From IMG/VR virus record IMGVR_UViG_3300013132_000038: a DNA stretch of 64,000 nucleotides. One strand, given 5' to 3'. The notes below the pieces were generated by a model. It made no database searches and was not told where the DNA came from. It saw nothing but the letters and a program-made list of their open reading frames with translations. The translations under genes and the position numbers were made by a program. This stretch comes from an uncultured virus (IMG/VR IMGVR_UViG_3300013132_000038). Taxonomy: Duplodnaviria > Heunggongvirae > Uroviricota > Caudoviricetes. Below, piece by piece: positions 16,408-27,700 of the stretch (its first letter is position 1; each line of letters opens with the position of its first letter).

Positions 16408-18033
16408 ATGTCAAAACTAAGTGGTTACGCAGACAAAAAGACAGCAATACAAATTGCACAAAACTCTGTTTATGGTGCTTTTGCAGTAGAGAATTTTATG
16501 GGGGGTACGTCCTATGAGATAAACCCATTAGACACTCTAAGAATCGTAGCAGCATCGTCTATATTTGGTGAGCCTCAATATTATAGAGACGGACTAAAAG
16601 CTCCTAGCAATCTTAGTACCCTTTCTAAATATTCAATATTTACTTCCCTGTACGAGAGCACCTCAACCTCGGTTGAAATTTTCGAGAATGCCATAGAATC
16701 AGCTTTAAGCTATGATTTTAAAGGCACGTTAGATTTAGCTCTCGAATTAAGAACTAAGTTCTTTATGAGGCTTAATCCTGCAGTAATATTCATAAAAGCT
16801 TCACAGCATCCTTCTAGAGTGGAATTTAACGAAGCCAATCCCGGATATATGAAGGGGATAGGAAAATCTATTTCTTTACGGCCTGATGATTTAACAAACC
16901 AGTTTGAATACTATATGTATAAAAACGGGGGTAAAAAAGGACTTTCGTCCTTGGTAAAAAGAACATGGGCTGAGAGACTTGGTGAATTTACTAGATACCA
17001 ATTAAACAAATATAAAGGTAAAAGATTGATTGATCTTGTCCGTATATCCCACGCAAGTGGTGAAGATATTAACGAGTTAATGTCTACTGGCACTTTAAAG
17101 GTTAAAGAGAGTGAAAAAACATGGGAATCACTAAGATCAGAAGGTAAAACGTGGAAGGAAATAACAGATACTATAGCTATTCCACACATGGCTTTGCTTA
17201 GAAATCTTAGAGGTATTTTCAGCGAAATACAAGACGCACCTGTTGCTGCTAGAATACTGACCCAATTAAAATCCGGTGTCGAGAATGGAAAACAATTCCC
17301 TTTCAGATATTGGTCTGCTTTCAATGCAATACAAAATGCTGAGGTCTACCACAAACAACTTTTATTAGATACATTGGAGGAATGTTTAGACATTTCAGTA
17401 GCTAATATGCCTAAACTTAAGGGTAAAACTGTGTGTCTTTCAGATAACTCAGGATCTGCTTGGGGATCTTTCAATAGTGAATATGGAACAGTTACAGTAG
17501 CAGAAATAGCTAATCTTTCCTCTTTAACAACTGCTTTGCAATCCGATGAGGGTATAGTAGGAGTTTTTGGAGATGAACTCTCCTTAAAAGGAGTTTCTAA
17601 AAGAAATGGAATCCTTACTCAATTAGAGGAAACATCTAAAAGAGGTAGAGCCCAAGGAGGGGGAACGGAAAATGGTATTTGGATATTCTGGGACGATGCT
17701 ATAAAAAATAAAATCCATTACGACAACGTTTTTATCTACTCTGATATGCAAGCAGGACACGGAGGATTATATGGACACGCAAGCACAGTAGGAAATTCCC
17801 CTTATGGACATAGCGGTAAAGGAGACGTTCATGTAGATGTACTATCAATGGTTCAGGAATACAGAAGAACCGTTAATCCTAAAGTTAATGTCTTTAGTGT
17901 TCAAGTTGCAGGATACAATAACTCAGTTCTTCCAGAGAATCTATACAGGGGAGCAATATTGGCTGGATGGACAGGTAAAGAACCTATATTTGCCAATGCT
18001 ATAATCGAAGCTTGGGATTCTATCGAATCTTAA
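16408..18033 (+). CDS. Ro60/Rsr-like TROVE + vWA domain RNA-binding protein
   Basis: TROVE features (ALLRNL, KQFPFRYWSA) and a vWA MIDAS-like DNSGS ... GGT ... SDMQ; 541 aa. Confidence 0.88.
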   Translation: MSKLSGYADKKTAIQIAQNSVYGAFAVENFMGGTSYEINPLDTLRIVAASSIFGEPQYYRDGLKAPSNLSTLSKYSIFTSLYESTSTSVEIFENAIESALSYDFKGTLDLALELRTKFFMRLNPAVIFIKASQHPSRVEFNEANPGYMKGIGKSISLRPDDLTNQFEYYMYKNGGKKGLSSLVKRTWAERLGEFTRYQLNKYKGKRLIDLVRISHASGEDINELMSTGTLKVKESEKTWESLRSEGKTWKEITDTIAIPHMALLRNLRGIFSEIQDAPVAARILTQLKSGVENGKQFPFRYWSAFNAIQNAEVYHKQLLLDTLEECLDISVANMPKLKGKTVCLSDNSGSAWGSFNSEYGTVTVAEIANLSSLTTALQSDEGIVGVFGDELSLKGVSKRNGILTQLEETSKRGRAQGGGTENGIWIFWDDAIKNKIHYDNVFIYSDMQAGHGGLYGHASTVGNSPYGHSGKGDVHVDVLSMVQEYRRTVNPKVNVFSVQVAGYNNSVLPENLYRGAILAGWTGKEPIFANAIIEAWDSIES

Positions 18034-20360: not shown

Positions 20361-21521
20361 ATGGAAAGAATATTATCATTCAGAGAATTTAGTCCAATGG
20401 ACGAGGAACTAAATTTCTATAACAATTCCGATTTGGACGATGCAGAAAGCCAAGTTGAAATGTCGGAGGCCGAAATGCTTTCGATATTTTTAGACGGATC
20501 ACTTTATGAAGCCGCTCCTAAGGGAAACACAGTGAAAGGCGGATTATTTGATCTTAATGATGCTACAACATACAAGGCAGTAAAAAATGTTAAGGAGGCT
20601 GTAATCAAGGGTGCTAAATACACATTTTTAACTGTATCCGATGGTATGAAAAATTTGGCTGACAAAGCAAAAAAAGCTGGTAAAGCGTATGCTAATTTCC
20701 TTTTGACCTGTGCAAAAAACGCAGGTAAGGTAATTATATTTACTATGGCAGCAGTTTATGTTGTAACAGAGGCAGTTGCTACTGGGTTAATATCAGCAGC
20801 TACATCTGTAATTAATTATGTAGGAAAAGGAGTAATGGCAATAGGAGCTTCCTTAGTTAATGCTTTTAAAAGTGTAAACGATTACTTTAAAAAATTAGGA
20901 ACTGCAGTTTTTAATACAATAAAATCAGATGCCACCGCGGTAGCTAAAGCTTTTATGACTGGTCTATATGCGGTTTCTAATAAATGTGCTAAAGCAGCAG
21001 AAGCAGTTTCGGCTTTAACTATTTCAGCATACAAATTAACAAAAACTGCATTTAAAAATGTTGATAATTTTGCAAAAAATTGTATTTATGGAGCGGCTCA
21101 AGCTGCTAAAGTAACTGCTGTAAAGATTGGCCAAAAAATAGGAGATTTTTATAATAAAGCGGTAGACACAGCAAAAAAATCAAAAGACTCAATAATTAAA
21201 AATACGAAAGCAGGAGCTCAATACGTGGTAAATAAAGTGAAGGGCGCAGTGAATACGGTTAAAAATGTTGCAGCTAAAGCAAAAACTGCAGTGGTTAACA
21301 CCGTTAAAACAGTAGCTAGTAAAATTGCAAACACTGCATCTGAAATAGGTTCACATCTTTCAGCAGCTTGGAACGCTTTCTGGGATCACGAAACATATCA
21401 AGGAACCGGACAAAGTATATTCGAATCTTATACTATTGTTGAGGGAGAAAAATATTATTTATTACCCGAACCAACTTATACGGAAGAATATTTACTAAGT
21501 GACGAAGAATATAATTATTAG
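20361..21521 (+). CDS. Ala/Lys-rich amphipathic helical virion protein
   Basis: Repetitive AK-rich helices; MERILSFREF N-terminus; tandem GATATATA upstream. Confidence 0.6.
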   Translation: MERILSFREFSPMDEELNFYNNSDLDDAESQVEMSEAEMLSIFLDGSLYEAAPKGNTVKGGLFDLNDATTYKAVKNVKEAVIKGAKYTFLTVSDGMKNLADKAKKAGKAYANFLLTCAKNAGKVIIFTMAAVYVVTEAVATGLISAATSVINYVGKGVMAIGASLVNAFKSVNDYFKKLGTAVFNTIKSDATAVAKAFMTGLYAVSNKCAKAAEAVSALTISAYKLTKTAFKNVDNFAKNCIYGAAQAAKVTAVKIGQKIGDFYNKAVDTAKKSKDSIIKNTKAGAQYVVNKVKGAVNTVKNVAAKAKTAVVNTVKTVASKIANTASEIGSHLSAAWNAFWDHETYQGTGQSIFESYTIVEGEKYYLLPEPTYTEEYLLSDEEYNY

Positions 21522-22008
21522 TATACAAGGACATAAATCCAAAAAATACACCTATTAAATGACCCCAGTGGGATATGCCATCGGGGTCATTTAGTGAAAG
21601 GACCTCACCTAATAGCAATATAAAGAATAACACTAATGTTATCTTATTAAATTTTATTAAATATCTAGTTGCCAAAAAGTAAACTAATCCAGATATTCCC
21701 ACACTCGGTAAAACACCAAATAAAGAAACAACAAAGCAGAAGCACTGGATTAAAAATACAATTAAAATCATCTGCTTTAAATTATATTTGTTTCCACTGT
21801 ATAGGAGTAAAAGAAAAAGGAAAATTATATTAAATAAGAAGTGCATTATATCATGGTGCATAAATCCGCTAACAAAAGGTAATGATACAGCAAGATCTGC
21901 ATTACCGCCTAATAATAACATAAGAATTATTCCCACAGGATAAGCTAATATACATACGCCAATCATTTTTAGCGTTTCTAACGAGGATCTTTTTAAACTG
22001 TCTTTCAT
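21433..22008 (-). CDS. rhomboid family intramembrane serine protease
   Basis: FMH...HFLFN, catalytic GISG, and H.GHLIG motif. Confidence 0.85.
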   Translation of the reverse strand: MKDSLKRSSLETLKMIGVCILAYPVGIILMLLLGGNADLAVSLPFVSGFMHHDIMHFLFNIIFLFLLLLYSGNKYNLKQMILIVFLIQCFCFVVSLFGVLPSVGISGLVYFLATRYLIKFNKITLVLFFILLLGEVLSLNDPDGISHWGHLIGVFFGFMSLYTNNYILRHLVNILPYKLVRVINNIFLPQQ

Positions 22009-22136
22009 AATAATTGTTTTGTTGTGTAATTGTAGAAAAAATCGTAAGATATAAAAAAAGATTCCGGATCTTTTTTATTAATAGAAATAGTCTATATTTG
22101 TGAAACAAAACAAAAAGGACAATATATAGTAATTAA

Positions 22137-22196
22137 ATGAACACAATATCTAACATATTACCTTTAATACTAAGACCGTCGATAAGACGGTCCTGA
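22137..22196 (+). CDS. putative attenuator leader peptide 1 (MNTISNILPLILRPSIRRS)
   Basis: 19-codon ORF after TATATTTG (22093) with an A-rich start; codons match the downstream tRNA set. Confidence 0.6.
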   Translation: MNTISNILPLILRPSIRRS

Positions 22197-22262
22197 AAGG
22201 TCCTGTATTAGTTTAACTATAACCATTAAAAACCGGGACCTTTAAAAAGTCCCGGTTTTTTT
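22196..22262 (+). promoter_or_regulatory. antiterminator/terminator pair before tRNA array 1
   Basis: Terminator AAAAACCGGGAC/GTCCCGGTTTTTTT; AAAGGTCCTG (22196-22205) can instead pair with CGGGACCTTT (22234-22243). Confidence 0.7.
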
Positions 22263-22292
22263 ATGTTCTTTGAAATGTTGGATTATTAAATT

Positions 22293-22382
22293 AGAGGGTT
22301 GCCAGAGCCAGGTTTAATGGATCAGTCTTGAAAACTGACGTAGTGAAAGCTACCGGGGGTTTGAATCCCTCACTCTCTGCCA
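22293..22382 (+). tRNA. tRNA-Ser(TGA)
   Basis: Cloverleaf with long variable arm, CT-TGA-AA loop, encoded CCA. Confidence 0.92.
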
Positions 22383-22385
22383 ATT

Positions 22386-22457
22386 GCCTCCGTAGTTCAA
22401 CGGATAGAACATGTGACTTCTAATCTCAAAATGTGGGTTCGATTCCCGCCGGAGGTA
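22386..22457 (+). tRNA. tRNA-Arg(TCT)
   Basis: Cloverleaf, CT-TCT-AA loop, GGTTCGATTCC T-arm. Confidence 0.9.
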
Positions 22458-22491
22458 CTAAAAAATAAAAGGGTCTATCGATATATAGATT

Positions 22492-23055
22492 ATGGAATAC
22501 AAAAAAGAAGAATTGGAAAAATATCTTTTTCAAGATAAATTAAATTACCGGCAGATTGGCGAAATCTACGGAACATCGGGAGTTTGGATAAGAAGAAAAG
22601 CTTTACAATTGGGAATACAATTAAAAACTAAAGAAAGCAAAAAATATTATTGTTTAAACTGCGATAAAGAAATAAAAAAAATGTCCAAGACACCAATATA
22701 TTGTAACAATAAATGTCAGGGCGATTATAAAAGAAAAAATAATATAGAATATTGGTTAAACAATCAGGATGAATTTTCTGATATTTTACTTAATCATTCA
22801 AAGAGTTATATTAAGTATTATTTAGAGAAAGAGCAGGGAAAAAAATGTAAAATATGTGGATGTAATTCAGTTTGGAATAATAAACCGATGGTTTTTATTC
22901 TGGATCATATAGACGGTAACGCTTCAAATAATAAAAGATTAAATCTTAGATTAATATGCCACAATTGCGATTCGCAGTTACCCACATATAAAAGCAAGAA
23001 TAAAAATTCTGCTAGAACTAGTAGATATAGAAAAAATACACCGCCCTCTACCTAG
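22492..23055 (+). CDS. HNH homing endonuclease inserted in the tRNA array
   Basis: CxxC, LDHIDGN..NN...NLRLICHNCDS. Confidence 0.9.
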   Translation: MEYKKEELEKYLFQDKLNYRQIGEIYGTSGVWIRRKALQLGIQLKTKESKKYYCLNCDKEIKKMSKTPIYCNNKCQGDYKRKNNIEYWLNNQDEFSDILLNHSKSYIKYYLEKEQGKKCKICGCNSVWNNKPMVFILDHIDGNASNNKRLNLRLICHNCDSQLPTYKSKNKNSARTSRYRKNTPPST

Positions 23056-23204
23056 CGCTGGGTATGGATCGAAGATAGAATATGCCTCTACACCGTAGAC
23101 AGGTAGGATACCTCGGTATTCTTTAATGATAAGCACACTTATTCTCCAAATCGTAGGTTGGCACAGTTTGCATGTTCTGGGGATATTAGAAAAACATGCA
23201 ACCG

Positions 23205-23277
23205 CGGGATGTAGATCAGTTGGTAGATCGCCTGGTTTGGGACCAGGAGGCCCCAGGTTCGAGTCCTGGTATCCCGA
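23205..23277 (+). tRNA. tRNA-Pro(TGG)
   Basis: Cloverleaf, TT-TGG-GA loop. Confidence 0.93.
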
Positions 23278-23284
23278 CAACCAC

Positions 23285-23358
23285 AGAGGCGTAGCTCAAT
23301 TGGTTAGAGCACATGCCTTATACGCATGCGGTCATGGGTTCGACTCCCATCGTCTCTA
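23285..23358 (+). tRNA. tRNA-Ile(TAT)
   Basis: CATGC-CT-TAT-AC-GCATG anticodon arm. Confidence 0.9.
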
Positions 23359-23362
23359 CTTA

Positions 23363-23436
23363 GGTCCCTTAGCTCAGTAGGTTAGAGCAACTGACTCATA
23401 ATCAGTAGGTCCACGGTTCGAGCCCGTGAGGGACCA
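23363..23436 (+). tRNA. tRNA with CAT anticodon, probably Ile2 (lysidine type)
   Basis: GGTCCCTTAGCTCAG...GACTCATAATC body resembles bacterial tRNA-Ile2. Confidence 0.85.
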
Positions 23437-23445
23437 CACAAGTCT

Positions 23446-23526
23446 GCCTGGGTGGTGAAACTGGTAGACACGTTCGGCTTAAGATCGAATGCGAAATGCG
23501 TGCGGGTTCGACTCCCGCCCCGGGTA
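23446..23526 (+). tRNA. tRNA-Leu(TAA)
   Basis: CT-TAA-GA loop, variable arm, T-arm. Confidence 0.9.
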
Positions 23527-23531
23527 CATTT

Positions 23532-23634
23532 TAAGAGTGGTGGAAGCGAGACCACTACAAGGATCCGATAGATAGACGCTAGGGTGCCATTCCCCGGAAC
23601 GAAAGTTCATGTTGGTGCAAGTCTAATCTCTTAC
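23532..23634 (+). ncRNA. tRNA-like structured RNA of unknown type
   Basis: Closing stem TAAGAG/CTCTTA, T-arm-like GTTGG-TGCAAGT-CTAAT, three internal hairpins. Confidence 0.45.
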
Positions 23635-23654
23635 TTTTTTTGGATATATAAATT

Positions 23655-24080
23655 ATGAAAATTAAAAGTATCCACGATTTTAATAATTCAATATTAAATA
23701 AACAATATCCTAAATATACACTAATAATAGGGGAAAAATCCGAGGATGTATTTAATTTCTTTGGCGTAGAAGAATTACACGGTCTATATAAAAAAGATTG
23801 CTACGATAATCCAGGTGATGCCTATATAGGCGGGTTATGTAATGTATATCCAGATGATCATAGTAAGTTATTTCTTTTTTTAAATGCAACAAGGCTAGGT
23901 AATGGATATAAAGATGTTTTATTGATTATGCACGAATCTATGCACCTATCTTTAGAAATACACGGAACAGATTTAACTTATAAAGGTGTAGATATAGAAG
24001 AAATTGCTATAACATGGGCAGAAGAAAATGCAGATTCAATTTACAATTTTATAAAATCTAGAGGAATAATAGATATATAA
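23655..24080 (+). CDS. putative zincin-like metallopeptidase
   Basis: HESMH ... EE motif. Confidence 0.45.
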   Translation: MKIKSIHDFNNSILNKQYPKYTLIIGEKSEDVFNFFGVEELHGLYKKDCYDNPGDAYIGGLCNVYPDDHSKLFLFLNATRLGNGYKDVLLIMHESMHLSLEIHGTDLTYKGVDIEEIAITWAEENADSIYNFIKSRGIIDI

Positions 24081-24091
24081 ATAAAAATACA

Positions 24092-24370
24092 ATGAAACAT
24101 ATATTCGAATTTGAATCATTTTCCGAAAAAGTAAACGAGGGATTCTGGGACTCCCTTTTTGGGAGACCAACTGTTGATGATGCAGCTCATGATTCTATGA
24201 GGGGACAAGGATGGAGTCATAGAGGTAAAGACGAAGAGAACTATATTATGTTTCAAGGACAAAAATTCTACCCGGATCAAATCCAATATGATGATGCTTA
24301 TTCAACTAAACCTATTCCAAGAATAGAAAATGGTATGTTAATAGTTGCTAATCCAGCATGGAATTTATAA
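24092..24370 (+). CDS. small protein with MKHIFEFESF N-terminus
   Basis: GATATATA at 24072 and shared motif. Confidence 0.55.
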   Translation: MKHIFEFESFSEKVNEGFWDSLFGRPTVDDAAHDSMRGQGWSHRGKDEENYIMFQGQKFYPDQIQYDDAYSTKPIPRIENGMLIVANPAWNL

Positions 24371-24446
24371 AAAAATTCAGGAATCATTTTTTTAATCAGA
24401 AACTTTTTACTACTTTTGTAATAATAAATAAAGGAACAAAAATTCA

Positions 24447-24521
24447 ATGCAACAATTTTTAAATATCGCACAGGTTCAACTCGATCGTCTTGAGGATATT
24501 GGAAAGTTCCAGAGGAATTAA
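24447..24521 (+). CDS. putative attenuator leader peptide 2 (MQQFLNIAQVQLDRLEDIGKFQRN)
   Basis: 24-codon ORF after TACTTTTG (24411), ending just before a terminator and tRNA array 2. Confidence 0.5.
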   Translation: MQQFLNIAQVQLDRLEDIGKFQRN

Positions 24522-24571
24522 ATTGATATAACGATACAATTGAAACCTCTGATAACCTCAGAGGTTTTTTT
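24510..24571 (+). promoter_or_regulatory. antiterminator/terminator pair before tRNA array 2
   Basis: Terminator AAACCTCTGA/TCAGAGGTTTTTTT; upstream CAGAGG (24510-24515) can pair with CCTCTG (24546-24551). Confidence 0.65.
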
Positions 24572-24601
24572 GTTTTATATGGTCTTTGAAATATTGAAAT
24601 T

Positions 24602-24686
24602 AGGAATAAGGTAACCACAAACCCACTGGTATTAGGCAGTTCTTGAGATGGAATGCAAGATAGAACGTAGGTCCTGCCTTATTCCT
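24602..24686 (+). ncRNA. structured RNA of unknown type
   Basis: 11-bp closing stem AGGAATAAGGT/GCCTTATTCCT with internal hairpins. Confidence 0.45.
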
Positions 24687-24692
24687 TCTTAT

Positions 24693-24764
24693 GGTCGGTT
24701 CATCTAGGGGTCAGGATACAAGGTTTTCATCCTTGTCACACGGGTTCGAATCCCGTACCGACTA
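24693..24764 (+). tRNA. tRNA-Glu(TTC)
   Basis: CAAGG-TT-TTC-AT-CCTTG anticodon arm, T-arm. Confidence 0.92.
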
Positions 24765-24821
24765 CGCAAAAAACATTGGACTGGGTTTCCCTATCCCGTT
24801 TGGGCAGGGTTTTGAAGGTTC

Positions 24822-24883
24822 GGGGATAAACAGTTAGAAGGGCCTTTCCTGAAAGACGGCTTGCTAGGCCCGTGTTTATCCCT
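24822..24883 (+). ncRNA. structured RNA of unknown type
   Basis: GGGGATAAACA/TGTTTATCCCT and GGGCCT/AGGCCC stacked stems. Confidence 0.45.
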
Positions 24884-24889
24884 ATTTTT

Positions 24890-24963
24890 GGTCCGTTAGT
24901 AGAGTTGGTCACAACGCCGCCCTGTCACGGCGGAGGTCATGGGTTCGAATCCCATACGGACCG
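24890..24963 (+). tRNA. tRNA-Asp(GTC)
   Basis: CCGCC-CT-GTC-AC-GGCGG anticodon arm. Confidence 0.92.
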
Positions 24964-24970
24964 CAGATAT

Positions 24971-25043
24971 TGCGGGATGTGGAAGATGGTTATCCGCTCG
25001 GTCTCATAAGCCGAGATCGCCAGTTCGAGTCTGGCTCCCGCTA
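24971..25043 (+). tRNA. tRNA-Met(CAT), initiator-like
   Basis: Unpaired 1:72 (T/T), GCGGGA acceptor, CTCATAA loop. Confidence 0.8.
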
Positions 25044-25047
25044 CTAA

Positions 25048-25128
25048 GCCCAGGTGGTGGAACGGTAGACACGCTAGATTTAGGATCTAGTGCCGAGAGG
25101 TGTGAGGGTTCGAGTCCCTCCCTGGGTA
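25048..25128 (+). tRNA. tRNA-Leu(TAG)
   Basis: CTAGA-TT-TAG-GA-TCTAG arm, variable arm. Confidence 0.92.
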
Positions 25129-25137
25129 CAATAAAAA

Positions 25138-25214
25138 GACCTTGTATCTCCTCGAACTCATAATGCGTAGAAAGGGTAATTGGTTACATGAGGGTTCGAT
25201 CCCCTCCGGGGCCA
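25138..25214 (+). ncRNA. non-canonical tRNA-like RNA (CAT loop, no conventional D-arm)
   Basis: Acceptor-like GACCTTG/CGGGGCC, intact T-arm GAGGG-TTCGATC-CCCTC, CTCATAA loop. Confidence 0.55.
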
Positions 25215-25234
25215 CAGAAAATAAAAAGGAATAT

Positions 25235-26047
25235 ATGATATGCGAAAGATGTAGTATAGAATACCATATAAAATATGGATCAGGAAGGTATTGTTCTAAA
25301 AAATGTGCATTTACGTTAAATGAGAATCAATTATCAGCATTAAGAAAGCCAAAATCCGAGGAGACTAAAAAAAATATGAGTAAACCCAAAAAAGATTCGT
25401 CTAAAATGGGGAAATATAATAAATGGGGTAATAATAATCCAAATTCGAAAAATAAAAAAGGAGATCTGAAATCCAGAAAAAATTCATCATATCATAATGT
25501 ATGCAAATCAAACAAAGATAATGGGTTAAGATGGGACGAGAAAGAAAAAAAGAATCATTCCGAAAAAATGAAAGGAGATTCTAATTGGATGAGAGGAAAA
25601 AAACACACGGAGAAAACTAAAACAAAAATATCAAACACTAAGAAAAACCAATATAAATTAGGTTTGGTGAAAAATAATTCATACTTTATATCAAAAGCAG
25701 AAAAAGAAATAGCATTGATATTAGAAGAGAATAAAATAACATACAAATCTCAGTACCCTCTAGATCGAGGGAGGTATTTTTATGATTTTTATATACCAGA
25801 AAAAAATCTAATAGTAGAATATAATGGGGATTTTTGGCACGGGAACCCGAATAAATATAAAGAAAATGACATAATAGGAGTAGGATCTACCAAAATGGAA
25901 GCTAAGTACAAATGGGAAATAGACAAAAAAAAGATGGAATACGCTACTTCTAAAGGATACAGATATTTAGTGATATGGGAATCTGATTACAAAAAGAATA
26001 AAAATATAATTATCAATCTATATGAAAATTTTGATATTGGATCATGA
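25235..26047 (+). CDS. homing endonuclease-like protein (NUMOD3-type repeats + Vsr/DUF559-like nuclease)
   Basis: GKKHTEKTKTKIS repeat; YDFY...IVEYNGDFWH ... VIWESD; real ATG at 25235. Confidence 0.8.
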   Translation: MICERCSIEYHIKYGSGRYCSKKCAFTLNENQLSALRKPKSEETKKNMSKPKKDSSKMGKYNKWGNNNPNSKNKKGDLKSRKNSSYHNVCKSNKDNGLRWDEKEKKNHSEKMKGDSNWMRGKKHTEKTKTKISNTKKNQYKLGLVKNNSYFISKAEKEIALILEENKITYKSQYPLDRGRYFYDFYIPEKNLIVEYNGDFWHGNPNKYKENDIIGVGSTKMEAKYKWEIDKKKMEYATSKGYRYLVIWESDYKKNKNIIINLYENFDIGS

Positions 26048-26540: not shown

Positions 26541-27059
26541 ATTGAAAAATCTTTTTTTAGGGCCGTTATATTTCACTATTTTTGTGATATAATGTATGTA
26601 TAAGTTTAACATTAAAAATTTTATTATGGAAAAACAAATTTTAAAAAGATTTACTATGAACGTAGATCACACAAACCCAGATGCTAAAGTGGAATTTACT
26701 GTTATTGGAACAGGTAAAACAGAAAAAGAAGCAGCGGTATTTGCTCTTGGTATGTTTTATAAAATTATGGACGGAGAGGAGGGAGATCAAGGCATTCAAA
26801 GATATGATGATGCTTTGGAAATTGTTAACGAGAAATTGAGTGCGGAGGAAATTGATCAAGCAGTAGACTCTTTAATACAGGGAGAGATAGAAAAAGATTC
26901 AGATATTTTCTATAATGCTTATGATTCCACTAAGGTTGAATATAGCTGGAGCGAGGTTAAAGAAGTGTCAGAGTGTGGATATACGGCCAGTATGGAAGTA
27001 ATTGAAACTTATTACTAATTAATTCGAAAAATATCAAAAATCATTTTTAGATATTTTGG

Positions 27060-27089
27060 AAAAGGCTTCGATTATTCGAAGCCTTTTTT
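27060..27089 (+). terminator. intrinsic terminator
   Basis: AAAAGGCTTCGA-TTAT-TCGAAGCCTTTTTT. Confidence 0.75.
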
Positions 27090-27099
27090 ATTTGTTCTT

Positions 27100-27171
27100 T
27101 TTTCCCTCGTCTAATTGGCAGGACATGTGGTTTTGGCCCACAGAATTAAGGCCCGAATCCTTGGGGGAAAA
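27100..27171 (+). tRNA. tRNA-Gln(TTG) with atypical T-loop
   Basis: TGTGG-TT-TTG-GC-CCACA arm; T-loop is CCCGAAT instead of TTCGAAT. Confidence 0.7.
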
Positions 27172-27211
27172 CAAAGATAAATATAATAGACCAGTATGTA
27201 AAAATGTAGTT

Positions 27212-27700
27212 ATGAAAGTGCTAGTATTAAATAATGACTTCACGCCGGTAAGCGTTACCGACTTTGCTCGGGGCTTTAAACTCGTATACAAGGGTAAAGC
27301 AGAGGTTTTGGAGCACGACGAAAATAATCCTATTGTTACGGATCAGAAAATTTACAAAAGGCCCTCAGTTATAAGACTGCTAAAGTATGTTGTTTTGCCT
27401 TTTAAGAAGTTAAAACCAACCAGGGAGAACATATTTAAGAGAGATGAATTAAAATGCTTATACTGTGATTATACAAAGCAACTTACTATAGATCACGTAA
27501 CTCCTAGATCTAGAGGAGGTATAAATACGTGGGAGAATCTTGCCACTTGCTGTTCTAAATGTAACAGTAAAAAGGGAGATAGAACCCCAGAAGAAGCAGG
27601 GATGAAAATGCGACATAGGCCATTTAAACCTGGATACGGGTATTTTATTAGGAAATTTTCCAGCGGTATGGATATTTGGACTGCATATTTACCAGAATAA
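27212..27700 (+). CDS. HNH endonuclease (McrA-like)
   Basis: VLVLN..F.P, RD..CLYC, TIDHV.PRSRGG..TWENLATCC..CN; real start ATG 27212. Confidence 0.9.
   Translation: MKVLVLNNDFTPVSVTDFARGFKLVYKGKAEVLEHDENNPIVTDQKIYKRPSVIRLLKYVVLPFKKLKPTRENIFKRDELKCLYCDYTKQLTIDHVTPRSRGGINTWENLATCCSKCNSKKGDRTPEEAGMKMRHRPFKPGYGYFIRKFSSGMDIWTAYLPE

Follow-up and report, generated by a model that had tools for sequence, protein, structure and literature searches.

Candidate leader-peptide attenuators upstream of the tRNA blocks of an uncultured phage lineage

Leader units and tRNA blocks

The window (the whole 64,000-nt stretch of DNA that was analysed) belongs to a freshwater phage lineage in which three paralogous units of the same layout precede three tRNA blocks in the relatives; of these, units 1 and 2 are present in the window itself, and unit 3 is reduced to a remnant. 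Unit 1 and the block that it precedes comprise the following features.

22093..22100, forward strand: unit 1 promoter −7 box TATATTTG, TAnnTTTG type, kept in 12/12 aligned relatives
22101..22136, forward strand: unit 1 5' untranslated leader, without a Shine-Dalgarno sequence
22137..22196, forward strand: leader ORF 1, 19 aa, MNTISNILPLILRPSIRRS and stop (ATG at 22137, TGA at 22194-22196)
22174..22192, forward strand: hairpin within leader ORF 1, GACCGTC-GATAA-GACGGTC (arms 22174-22180 and 22186-22192)
22196..22205, forward strand: unit 1 antiterminator 5' strand AAAGGTCCTG, its first base being the last base of the ORF 1 stop codon
22228..22262, forward strand: unit 1 intrinsic terminator AAAAACCGGGAC...GTCCCGGTTTTTTT, its 5' arm (22234-22243) being the antiterminator partner
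22264..22276, forward strand: unit 1 boxA-like motif TGTTCTTTGAAAT
22293..23527, forward strand: tRNA block 1
22293-22382: tRNA-Ser(tga), block 1
22386-22458: tRNA-Arg(tct), block 1
22492-23055: HNH endonuclease ORF, inside block 1 between tRNA-Arg(tct) and tRNA-Pro(tgg)
23205-23278: tRNA-Pro(tgg), block 1
23285-23359: tRNA-Ile(tat), block 1
23363-23437: tRNA-Met(cat), block 1, put down as Ile2-like in the earlier note
23446-23527: tRNA-Leu(taa), block 1

An earlier note on this DNA had described the promoter, leader ORF, hairpin, antiterminator, terminator and boxA-like motif of unit 1, and all of these were found again in place. Its tally of the leader codons was likewise reproduced, with Ile, Ser, Leu, Pro and Arg accounting for 15 of the 18 non-start codons, including ATA four times and TTA and AGA twice each. 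The TAnnTTTG box is of a type which we take to be the Bacteroidota promoter consensus, and directly 3' of it stands TGAAACAAAA, invariant among the 12 aligned relatives. A sigma-70 scan gave no enrichment (35 found against 41 expected), and a pattern joining an upstream AT-tract to TAnnTTTG was found 7 times against 3.3 expected, with 0/7 at leaders. Within the 5' leader, AATATATA lies at 22121-22128, with GATATATAA in the relatives; the GATATATA motif is tied to gene starts (16 found, 6.7 expected), and a Shine-Dalgarno sequence precedes just 4 of 54 phage genes. It should also be noted that L050-L054, from another phage group, carry the same promoter and 5' leader ahead of an ORF of about 55 aa, an ordinary small protein gene.

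The unit 1 leader folds better than its shuffles (z=−3.97), and folding of the spacers at 23056-23204, 23528-23654 and 24593-24692 was no better than that of shuffles. The terminator has 93.7% of its cells paired across the alignment. The hairpin inside ORF 1, which is possibly an RNA polymerase pause hairpin, has 88% of cells paired in 12 sequences. The perfect GACCGTC/GACGGTC pairing reported in the earlier note is present here but is peculiar to the window as a 7-bp stem, since 10 of the 12 aligned relatives carry a central C.A mismatch. A search of Rfam with the leader gave no match to T-box, riboswitch or other leader families other than a sub-threshold hit to Thr_leader (RF00506) on 22146-22265, whose 24.7 bits (E=0.34) fall below the gathering score of 55; the leader is not a sequence member of any Rfam leader family.

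The boxA-like motif, which resembles what we take to be the E. coli boxA consensus, follows every leader terminator in the relatives and lies 20-35 nt ahead of the first tRNA. Of 20 rRNA loci picked by Bacteroidota name and small contig size, 12 carry a related 15-mer, TTCTTTGACATAYTG, on the sense strand of the spacer that separates 16S from 23S; there it follows the spacer tRNAs and precedes the 23S gene by 54-172 nt. No printed Bacteroidota boxA sequence was found in the literature. As in rRNA-operon antitermination by boxA and Nus factors, a short U-rich motif stands immediately behind the regulatory region and is followed by long untranslated RNA genes. It differs from that system in serving tRNA arrays and in lying directly behind an attenuator, with binding of NusB/NusE here being putative. 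By this analogy the element is probably where Nus factors of the host load. The finding also indicates that phages borrow the boxA signal of host rRNA for transcribing long untranslated arrays. In two other loci (L014 and L016), boxA-like motifs were observed ahead of tRNA blocks with neither leader ORF nor terminator.

The remaining units of the window are arranged as follows.

24411..24418, forward strand: unit 2 promoter-like box TACTTTTG
24447..24521, forward strand: leader ORF 2, 24 aa, MQQFLNIAQVQLDRLEDIGKFQRN and stop; ORF in 10/10 loci
24509-24515, forward strand: unit 2 antiterminator strand CCAGAGG, within leader ORF 2
24542..24568, forward strand: unit 2 terminator GAAACCTCTGA-TAACC-TCAGAGGTTTT
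24579..24592, forward strand: unit 2 boxA-like motif ATGGTCTTTGAAAT
24693..25129, forward strand: tRNA block 2, Glu(ttc), Asp(gtc), Met(cat) and Leu(tag)
27057..27099, forward strand: unit 3 remnant, consisting of a terminator (27057-27090) and a truncated boxA-like motif TTTGTTCTTT, abutting tRNA-Gln
27100..27172, forward strand: tRNA-Gln(ttg), the last block 3 tRNA in the relatives

Unit 3 of the window lacks the leader ORF and 14 tRNAs that the relatives carry.

Conservation and codon content of the leaders

Unit 1 was found in 34 related phage or metagenome contigs, representing 20 distinct leaders, with the ATG and reading frame intact in all of them. The conservation of the leader ORF in related phages, on which the reading of the earlier note depended, was borne out: 34 of 35 homologous leaders retain the ORF, and only L002, whose array is decayed, has ATA instead of ATG. 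The alignment contains zero indels within the ORF, and indels abound in the spacer that separates the antiterminator from the terminator. An exact 31-mer of the terminator had 0 matches in IMG/VR. A metagenome scan returned 25 matches, of which 3 were by chance, and a viral scan for region 2 plus terminator returned 12 contigs already known and 14 chance matches in GC-rich phages. The flanking proteins (20361-21521 and 23655-24080) had no relatives in IMG/VR or among GenBank phages, and blastn of 21400-24700 against phages gave matches to tRNA and HNH sequences only.

Thirteen of the 18 codons of leader 1 are cognate to block 1 tRNAs, against a phage-gene background of 0.231 (binomial P=1.4e-5), and this count was reached by 0 of 13,480 windows of 18 codons drawn from phage genes. 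The other two frames hold 0 cognate codons and are interrupted by 3 and 1 stops. The codon match of leader 1 is beyond chance. ATA, TTA and AGA are also the codons that the phage uses most often for Ile, Leu and Arg.

Across the 20 distinct leader 1 sequences, codons 7-17 and 19 fall within the block 1 set in 232 of 240 cells, and codons 2-6 do so in 17 of 100. Codon positions 10 and 11 switch among Leu, Ile, Ser and Pro. Of the variant codon types, 20/28 stay in the block 1 set, compared with 36% expected for single-base neighbours (P=1.7e-4). At the level of the aligned sequences, what is conserved in leader 1 is the class of codon and not the peptide.

The proposed link between leader codons and array anticodons mostly held. 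Codon class is conserved, and Pro and Leu codons track the tRNAs in two divergent lineages: both Pro codons are gone from the leaders of L012/L233 and L231, which have no tRNA-Pro, and in L231, where Leu(tag) and Leu(gag) replace Leu(taa), CTG/CTC replace TTA in the leader. In L235 the two Pro codons have shifted in position but are retained. Against this stand several exceptions, namely L012, which lacks tRNA-Ser(tga) yet keeps three TCN codons, L010, without Leu(taa) yet with both TTA codons, L231, without Ile(tat) yet with ATA twice, and L059 and L060, which carry a full leader 3 ahead of decayed blocks.

Leader 2 of the window is not significantly enriched for block 2 codons (5/23, P=0.49; under strict counting 3/23, P=0.80). 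A dense Leu/Glu/Asp cluster is present in leader 2 of some relatives only, as in L008, where 8 of 10 codons belong to it, a density matched by 5 of 13,070 segments. The ORF of unit 3 is kept in 22/22 homologues among the relatives (8/8 and 14/14). Under strict wobble, 27 of the 34 codons of their leader 3 belong to block 3, which was reached in 11 of 12,824 phage-gene windows. This leader has a codon for 15/15 block 3 tRNA species and 0/12,824 windows do; in the divergent version of L011 the full 15/15 coverage is retained despite reshuffled positions. Because leader 3 carries AGT/AGC codons, block 3 was searched for tRNA-Ser(GCT), and a tRNA-like gene with this anticodon, missed by ARAGORN, was found there.

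Alternative pairing in the three units

In unit 1 the antiterminator (22196-22205 with 22234-22243) comprises 10 pairs, one of them G-U, with a computed duplex energy of −16.1 kcal/mol, and has 95.8% of cells paired in 12 sequences, including one compensatory A-U to U-A change. An intrinsic terminator is present in all units of all examined loci, and every unit of the relatives has its own terminator with a matching antiterminator at the ORF end. Over seven loci and three units, duplex energies were −10.6 to −19.4 kcal/mol within the same unit and −3.9 to −10.2 kcal/mol between units; in unit 2 of the window the antiterminator is weak and pairs with the terminator 5' arm at −10.5 kcal/mol. In L011 and L028 the unit 2 terminator differs and the ORF end is changed to match. 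The covariation of stems anticipated in the earlier note is seen between units, where the antiterminator is unit-specific across the three paralogues with compensatory changes, but little of it occurs within unit 1, whose sequence is nearly invariant and whose observed covariation score was met by 34 of 500 shuffles.

In equilibrium folds containing the whole terminator, the terminator wins at any ribosome position in units 1 and 3, so that the switch would have to be kinetic. Since such folds cannot discriminate between ribosome positions in these units, 11 leaders were folded up to the terminator loop with the ribosome absent, stalled upstream or at the stop. In the folds without a ribosome or with one stalled upstream, the probability that the 5' arm of the terminator is sequestered is 0.84-1.0. 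A ribosome at the stop lowers it to 0.04-0.58 in 9 leaders out of the 11 and barely shifts it in unit 2 of the window (0.84 to 0.79) and unit 2 of L011 (0.72). In the full-length minimum free energy structure of unit 1, ACCUUU (22160-22165) and AAAGGU (22196-22201) pair and enclose the internal hairpin; when folding stops at the terminator loop, the antiterminator prevails. No clear conserved 1:2 anti-antiterminator was found across the leaders.

Probable attenuation and competing explanations

It is considered likely that in this phage lineage a ribosome-mediated leader-peptide transcription attenuator stands ahead of every tRNA block and exerts feedback control over tRNA supply. The comparison with related phages supports the attenuator reading of the earlier note through the retained ORF, the unit-specific stems, the conserved codon class, the tracking of tRNA content and the coverage by leader 3. 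Transcription would start from the TAnnTTTG promoter and we infer that the short ORF is translated while it is being made, with ribosome and polymerase coupled. The last bases of the ORF, or those just past its stop, would pair with the 5' arm of the terminator and so block it. A fast ribosome reaching the stop would mask the antiterminator strand, allowing the terminator to fold and halting the polymerase before the tRNA genes, whereas a ribosome delayed at any earlier codon would let the antiterminator form and permit read-through. The polymerase would then pass the boxA-like element, where Nus factors may bind, and transcribe the tRNA block. The expected direction of the response is that a shortage of decoding capacity for the codons of the block turns the tRNA genes on and sufficiency turns them off, which would amount to a negative feedback loop because the leader uses codons read by the block's own tRNAs. 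To our knowledge, transcription-translation coupling is not established in hosts of the Bacteroidota type that lack Shine-Dalgarno sequences; the units suggest that ribosome-polymerase coupling does operate in such hosts.

Alternatively, the leaders could be coupled to translation and sense only its general state, such as ribosome availability or the slowdown after host shut-off, the codon match being in part a by-product of AT-richness and of the stems. This would fit the lack of a significant match for leader 2 in the window, the standing of ATA, TTA and AGA as the phage's commonest codons for their amino acids, the constraint that hairpin and antiterminator place on the final codons of leader 1, and the several exceptions to covariation. 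It is nevertheless judged unlikely, as 0/13,480 phage-gene windows equal the leader 1 match and 0/12,824 the leader 3 coverage, codons 10 and 11 lie outside the stems and vary in amino acid but not in codon class, and in two lineages the Pro and Leu codons change along with the tRNAs present. Codon class rather than amino acid being conserved also speaks against a micropeptide, and an sRNA would have no need for the conserved ATG, frame and stop seen in 34/35 copies. These are the two forms of a further explanation, in which the short ORFs or the promoter-to-terminator transcripts of about 150 nt are independent small genes, expression of the tRNAs is separate, through read-through or other promoters, and complementarity to the terminator arm is incidental. 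The small protein gene behind the same promoter and 5' leader in L050-L054, the very stable predicted terminator and the boxA-like motifs without leader ORF or terminator in L014 and L016 would all agree with this. Three different terminators, however, each have a matching copy of the 3' arm exactly at the ORF end, and the interval from terminator to first tRNA contains a boxA-like motif only and no promoter-like element, making independent small genes an improbable account.

An RNA-only sensor resembling a T-box, in which codon-like triplets pair with anticodons and translation is not needed, appears very improbable. The leader does contain triplets that complement anticodons of the tRNAs behind it, and the products of the regulated RNA genes could bind the leader, but Rfam gave no T-box or riboswitch match, and the conserved ATG, open frame and stop at the antiterminator would be left unexplained; moreover, we know of no precedent for sixteen different specifiers in one 100-nt leader. 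T-box riboswitches bind uncharged tRNA directly and are untranslated. They share with the phage leaders the coupling of translation-apparatus genes to a specific tRNA state through the choice between antiterminator and terminator, and differ in that a conserved ORF is central to the phage leaders.

Textbooks have described leader-peptide attenuation for about fifty years, with trpL, hisL, leuL, thrL, ilvL and pheL in amino-acid operons and pheM of pheST. The phage units share with these a promoter, a short ORF, which in units 1 and 3 is rich in diagnostic codons, an antiterminator competing with an intrinsic terminator, and a stop codon whose position means that termination would be favoured once the ribosome finishes. 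What would be read out in both is decoding speed and hence the supply of charged tRNA. In contrast to amino-acid operons, the phage units would regulate the tRNAs themselves, so that the loop senses its own product, and their leaders present one or two codons from each of 5 to 16 families and not a run for a single amino acid. They are carried by a phage, lack a Shine-Dalgarno sequence and have a boxA-like element behind them, and no conserved 1:2 anti-antiterminator was found in them.

Returning to attenuation by the leader peptide, an on-demand tRNA supply could conceivably counter anticodon-nuclease defence, as the earlier note had conjectured. A tentative and rather doubtful extension is that the three leaders form a codon-addressed alarm, with unit 1 serving homeostasis of the readers of AT-rich codons (ATA, TTA, AGA, TCN, CCN) and unit 3 an inducible, self-limiting counter-defence. 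The unit 3 leader, with one codon for each of 16 ordinary tRNAs, would be silent while host tRNAs are intact and would fire on depletion or cleavage of any one of them, for example by anticodon nucleases, by defences of the PARIS, retron or Schlafen type, or by the host shut-off that the phage itself imposes. If true, unit 3 would be a sensor of tRNA damage made from just a 35-codon ORF and two hairpins.

Phage tRNA clusters have been discussed as codon compensation or counter-defence, with large arrays supplementing or replacing host tRNAs; the abstracts of these studies deal with the roles of the tRNAs and mention no cis-acting transcription sensor (eLife 2023, PMC10264068; Nature 2024, PMC11464382; Nat Commun 2024, PMC11555353). 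In a full-text literature search, attenuation was always described for amino-acid biosynthesis or synthetase genes, and no case of a tRNA gene or phage tRNA array was found. Under attenuation the sensed quantity would be the regulated product, giving a direct feedback loop on decoding capacity. Phage tRNA arrays would then be a regulated on-demand resource instead of constitutive ballast, which bears on the debate between codon compensation and counter-defence. A leader polling 5 to 16 codon families could be put to new use in reporting how available tRNAs are, and the presence in a single genome of three paralogous units that differ in codon set supplies ready-made controls for experiments.

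Among RNA-labelled sequencing data, four runs (X21-X24) cover tRNA-like pieces only, mostly from other organisms, with zero cover of the leader. In a cDNA contig of one relative, from which no conclusion is drawn, the promoter region is joined directly to a boxA-like motif and a tRNA.

Leader units and the tRNA blocks behind them

The window is an AT-rich piece (about 33% GC) of the genome of a large myovirus, with a gene content that includes a UvsX-like recombinase, a DnaB-like helicase, the large terminase and a tail sheath. It is present in DNA sequencing runs of lake and other freshwater samples. Eleven tRNA genes were predicted on the + strand (ARAGORN). An earlier note had proposed a leader-peptide attenuator at 22093..23526 with codons mirroring the downstream tRNA array, and every element that it listed for this unit (unit 1) was recovered at its place.

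Elements of the leader units in the window
22093-22100, +, promoter box TATATTTG, unit 1
22137-22196, +, leader ORF 1, 19 codons, MNTISNILPLILRPSIRRS
22174-22192, +, hairpin inside leader ORF 1
22196-22205 with 22234-22243, +, antiterminator, 10-pair complement
22228-22262, +, strong terminator, unit 1
22264-22276, +, boxA-like TGTTCTTTGAAAT
from 22293, +, tRNA-Ser(tga), first tRNA of block 1 (ARAGORN)
24447-24521, leader ORF, unit 2
24542-24568, terminator, unit 2
24579-24592, boxA-like motif, unit 2
27057-27099, remnant of unit 3: only the terminator and a cut boxA-like motif, fused to tRNA-Gln

The unit-1 leader folded better than shuffled sequences (z=-3.97), and its sole match in Rfam was Thr_leader, below threshold (24.7 bits vs 55). 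The genes flanking unit 1 had no relatives in the collections searched; relatives were gathered via gene 16408-18033, 4 kb upstream, which gave 49 IMG/VR loci (related contigs carry L-numbers). The tRNA array opens with a Ser, Arg, Pro, Ile, Met, Leu block in 11 of these, and in 10 of the 11 the 200 bases ahead of tRNA-Ser are near-identical base for base; L007 has kept the unit-1 leader farther upstream, separated by an insertion. A metagenome scan gave 25 matches, 22 of them true leader-1 homologues.

In each complete relative the boxA-like motif occurs behind a T-run in exactly three copies, each 20-35 bases upstream of the first tRNA of a block. The 5' side of every copy holds a TAnnTTTG box, then a short ORF starting with ATG, then a terminator. 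Units 1 and 2 are present in the window.

tRNA blocks behind the three units
Unit 1: Ser(tga), Arg(tct), Pro(tgg), Ile(tat), Met(cat), Leu(taa)
Unit 2: Glu, Asp, Met, Leu(tag)
Unit 3: Phe, Lys, Trp, Arg(acg), Cys, Ile(gat), Val, Asn, Tyr, Gly, Ala, Met, His, Thr, Gln

Three HNH or homing-endonuclease ORFs are scattered through the tRNA array of the window (22492-23055, 25142-26047 and 27176-27700). In L007 and L002, inserted DNA of another kind separates the first tRNA from the boxA-like motif. A 100-base insert (24593-24692), common to L001 and L003, separates the unit-2 motif from tRNA-Glu in the window and contains a long-range stem AGGAATAAGG/CCTTATTCCT; its fold was not significantly better than shuffles (z=-1.6) and it had no Rfam match. 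In the other relatives tRNA-Glu directly follows the motif. A window spacer of ~150 bases (23056-23204) between an HNH ORF and tRNA-Pro had neither a family match in Rfam nor a significant fold against shuffles; relatives have a ~165-base spacer from tRNA-Arg to tRNA-Pro, with none in L003, L011 and L028. In L221, 29 bases from the 3' end were all that was found of tRNA-Leu(taa), ~860 bases past the tRNA before it; an insertion or intron may interrupt the gene. ARAGORN also called a TTA-anticodon tRNA ('tRNA-Stop') in several related phages (L028, 17787-17858; also L031, L033, L039 and L047). It is a possible ochre suppressor, and thereby a hint that some members of the phage group reassign or suppress stop codons.

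Codon content of the leaders

The ATG and frame of leader 1 were intact in 34 ORFs, 20 of them distinct, which bears out the conservation expected of a translated leader; the only exception was L002, with ATA in place of ATG and a decayed array. In an alignment of unit 1, indels abound in the stretch that separates the antiterminator from the terminator and are absent from the ORF. The proposed mirroring of the array holds for leader 1, as block 1 reads 13 of its 18 codons, a count reached by 0 of 13,480 gene windows. The background in the phage's own genes is 0.231 (14,177 codons; P=1.4e-5). With strict wobble the count was 10/18, reached by 3 gene windows. Among the 20 distinct leaders, 232/240 cells for codons 7-17 and 19 fall within the block-1 set, against 17/100 for codons 2-6, and positions 10 and 11 vary between Leu, Ile, Ser and Pro codons, always inside the set. 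Variant codon types were inside it in 20 of 28 cases, compared to 36% expected for single-base neighbours (P=1.7e-4). Leader 1 is under selection for codon class and not for peptide, partly outside the stems.

Leader 3, which reads MKNCSKHNI[IN]RM[NI]SQINGCYQTVAFWAKGKEPDRS in relatives, has all 15 block-3 tRNA species represented by a codon, Trp, Cys, His, Met and Tyr included (0/12,824 gene windows match); all 15 are kept, with shuffled positions, in the divergent leader of L011. This match is independent of that of leader 1. Since leader 3 also carries AGT/AGC codons, a tRNA-Ser(GCT) was sought; block 3 proved to hold a conserved tRNA-like gene whose anticodon is GCT and whose variable arm is long (L055, 5736-5822; also L004, L006, L008, L010 and others). 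ARAGORN missed this gene in most relatives, and in L057 its position coincides with an ARAGORN call of Ser(gct); the best Rfam match of the gene was the tRNA-Sec model (38 bits, E=1.6e-5), below the gathering score of 47. With this gene counted, codons 2-30 form 29 consecutive block-3 codons, matched by 20/13,029 windows. Leader 2 of the window was not clearly enriched in block-2 codons (5/23, P=0.49; strict, 3/23, P=0.80). In some relatives leader 2 has a dense run directly before the antiterminator, such as LHKEDDLLED, where 8/10 codons match (reached by 5/13,070 segments); no more than 5/10 codons match in the window (equalled by 1,948/13,275 segments).

The correlation of leader codons with array anticodons across related loci, as predicted in the note, was upheld in part. 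Both leader Pro codons are gone in L012, L013, L233 and L234, whose block is without tRNA-Pro, and in L235 both are shifted with two retained. In L231, protein genes come after a block of Ser, Arg, Met(cat), Leu(tag) and Leu(gag); Pro codons and TTA are missing from the leader, in which CTG and CTC are present. Against this, L012 lacks tRNA-Ser(tga) and retains three TCN codons, L010 lacks Leu(taa) and still has TTA twice, L231 lacks Ile(tat) and still has ATA twice (its CAT tRNA might be Ile2), and L059 and L060 have a full leader 3 ahead of decayed blocks.

The proposed antiterminator-terminator switch

In all three units the final ORF bases, or bases touching the stop, repeat the 3' arm of the terminator and thereby pair with its 5' arm. 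Duplex energies for seven loci and three units were -10.6 to -19.4 kcal/mol within a unit and -3.9 to -10.2 kcal/mol across units, with a narrow margin for L011 unit 2 only. The anticipated stem covariation is seen as unit-specific pairing and in L011 and L028, where a different unit-2 terminator is accompanied by a matching change in the last bases of the ORF. There is little of it in unit 1, whose two helices are kept with hardly any variation (92-96% of cells paired) and show one compensatory pair; 34/500 shuffles scored equally well.

When the whole terminator was included in equilibrium folding, it was always favoured in units 1 and 3, so that any switch must be kinetic, as it is in classical attenuators. 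RNA was also folded only up to the terminator loop, with the ribosome absent, stalled upstream or on the stop. Without a ribosome, or with one stalled upstream, the 5' arm was sequestered (P 0.84-1.0); a ribosome on the stop lowered this to 0.04-0.58 in 9 of 11 leaders tested, with little change for unit 2 of the window (0.84 to 0.79) and of L011 (0.84 to 0.72). According to folding, a stall would cease to help at the last two codons in leader 1 and at the final five or six in leader 3, and these are mostly non-block codons. No conserved anti-antiterminator was found in the leaders examined, therefore the untranslated state would be read-through.

Under the proposed mechanism, the promoter would fire and the leader would be translated, whereupon a fast ribosome reaching the stop would cover the antiterminator, allowing the terminator to form and the polymerase to stop. 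A ribosome delayed at any block-served codon would leave the antiterminator free, and the polymerase would read through, gain Nus factors at the boxA-like site and transcribe the array. The outcome would be negative feedback on the decoding capacities supplied by the block itself. The commonest Ile, Leu and Arg codons of the phage are ATA, TTA and AGA, so unit 1 would secure their decoding; unit 3 would be an insurance for ordinary tRNAs, lost in the phage of the window. The mechanism class is that of classical attenuators, and what is new in the phage units is the tRNA target, the multi-codon leader and the link with a boxA-like site. Searches of full texts outside subscription journals found no attenuator of the leader-peptide kind in front of tRNA genes or within tRNA arrays of phages, and the words attenuator, leader, terminator and promoter are all absent from one published account of phage tRNAs.

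The boxA-like motif, promoter signals and host

The 15-mer TTCTTTGACATAYTG was present in at least 121 stretches of genome contigs. From the matches listed, twenty loci were picked for having either a Bacteroidota name or a small contig. In 12 of these the 15-mer lies on the sense strand, 3' of spacer tRNAs and 54-172 bases upstream of the 23S rRNA start, with no rRNA match in the remaining eight. This location is that of the spacer boxA of rRNA operons, as established for E. coli. The more distant phages L014 and L016 have the boxA-like motif ahead of tRNA blocks without leader ORF or terminator, from which it follows that the motif is older than the attenuator, which was added in this clade. 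The occurrence of the motif in Bacteroidota rRNA spacers, the TAnnTTTG promoter type and the lack of Shine-Dalgarno sequences (found at only 4 of 54 gene starts of the phage) together point to a Bacteroidota host.

A further motif, GATATATA, was found 16 times in the window against 6.7 expected, 14 times on the + strand (examples at 1868, 18707, 20328, 20336, 22480, 23643, 24072, 29683, 39998 and 60031). For almost all copies an ORF starts no more than about 30 bases downstream, and the motif may serve in translation or as a (middle or late) promoter specific to the phage. In leaders of the relatives, GATATATAA is found downstream of the TAnnTTTG box and ahead of the ATG. It should also be noted that in another phage group (L050-L054, contigs of 70-88 kb) the same promoter and 5' leader, TTTGTGAAACAAAAC ... 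ATATAA ... ATG, occur from position 1501 onward, in front of a lysine-rich ORF of about 55 aa.
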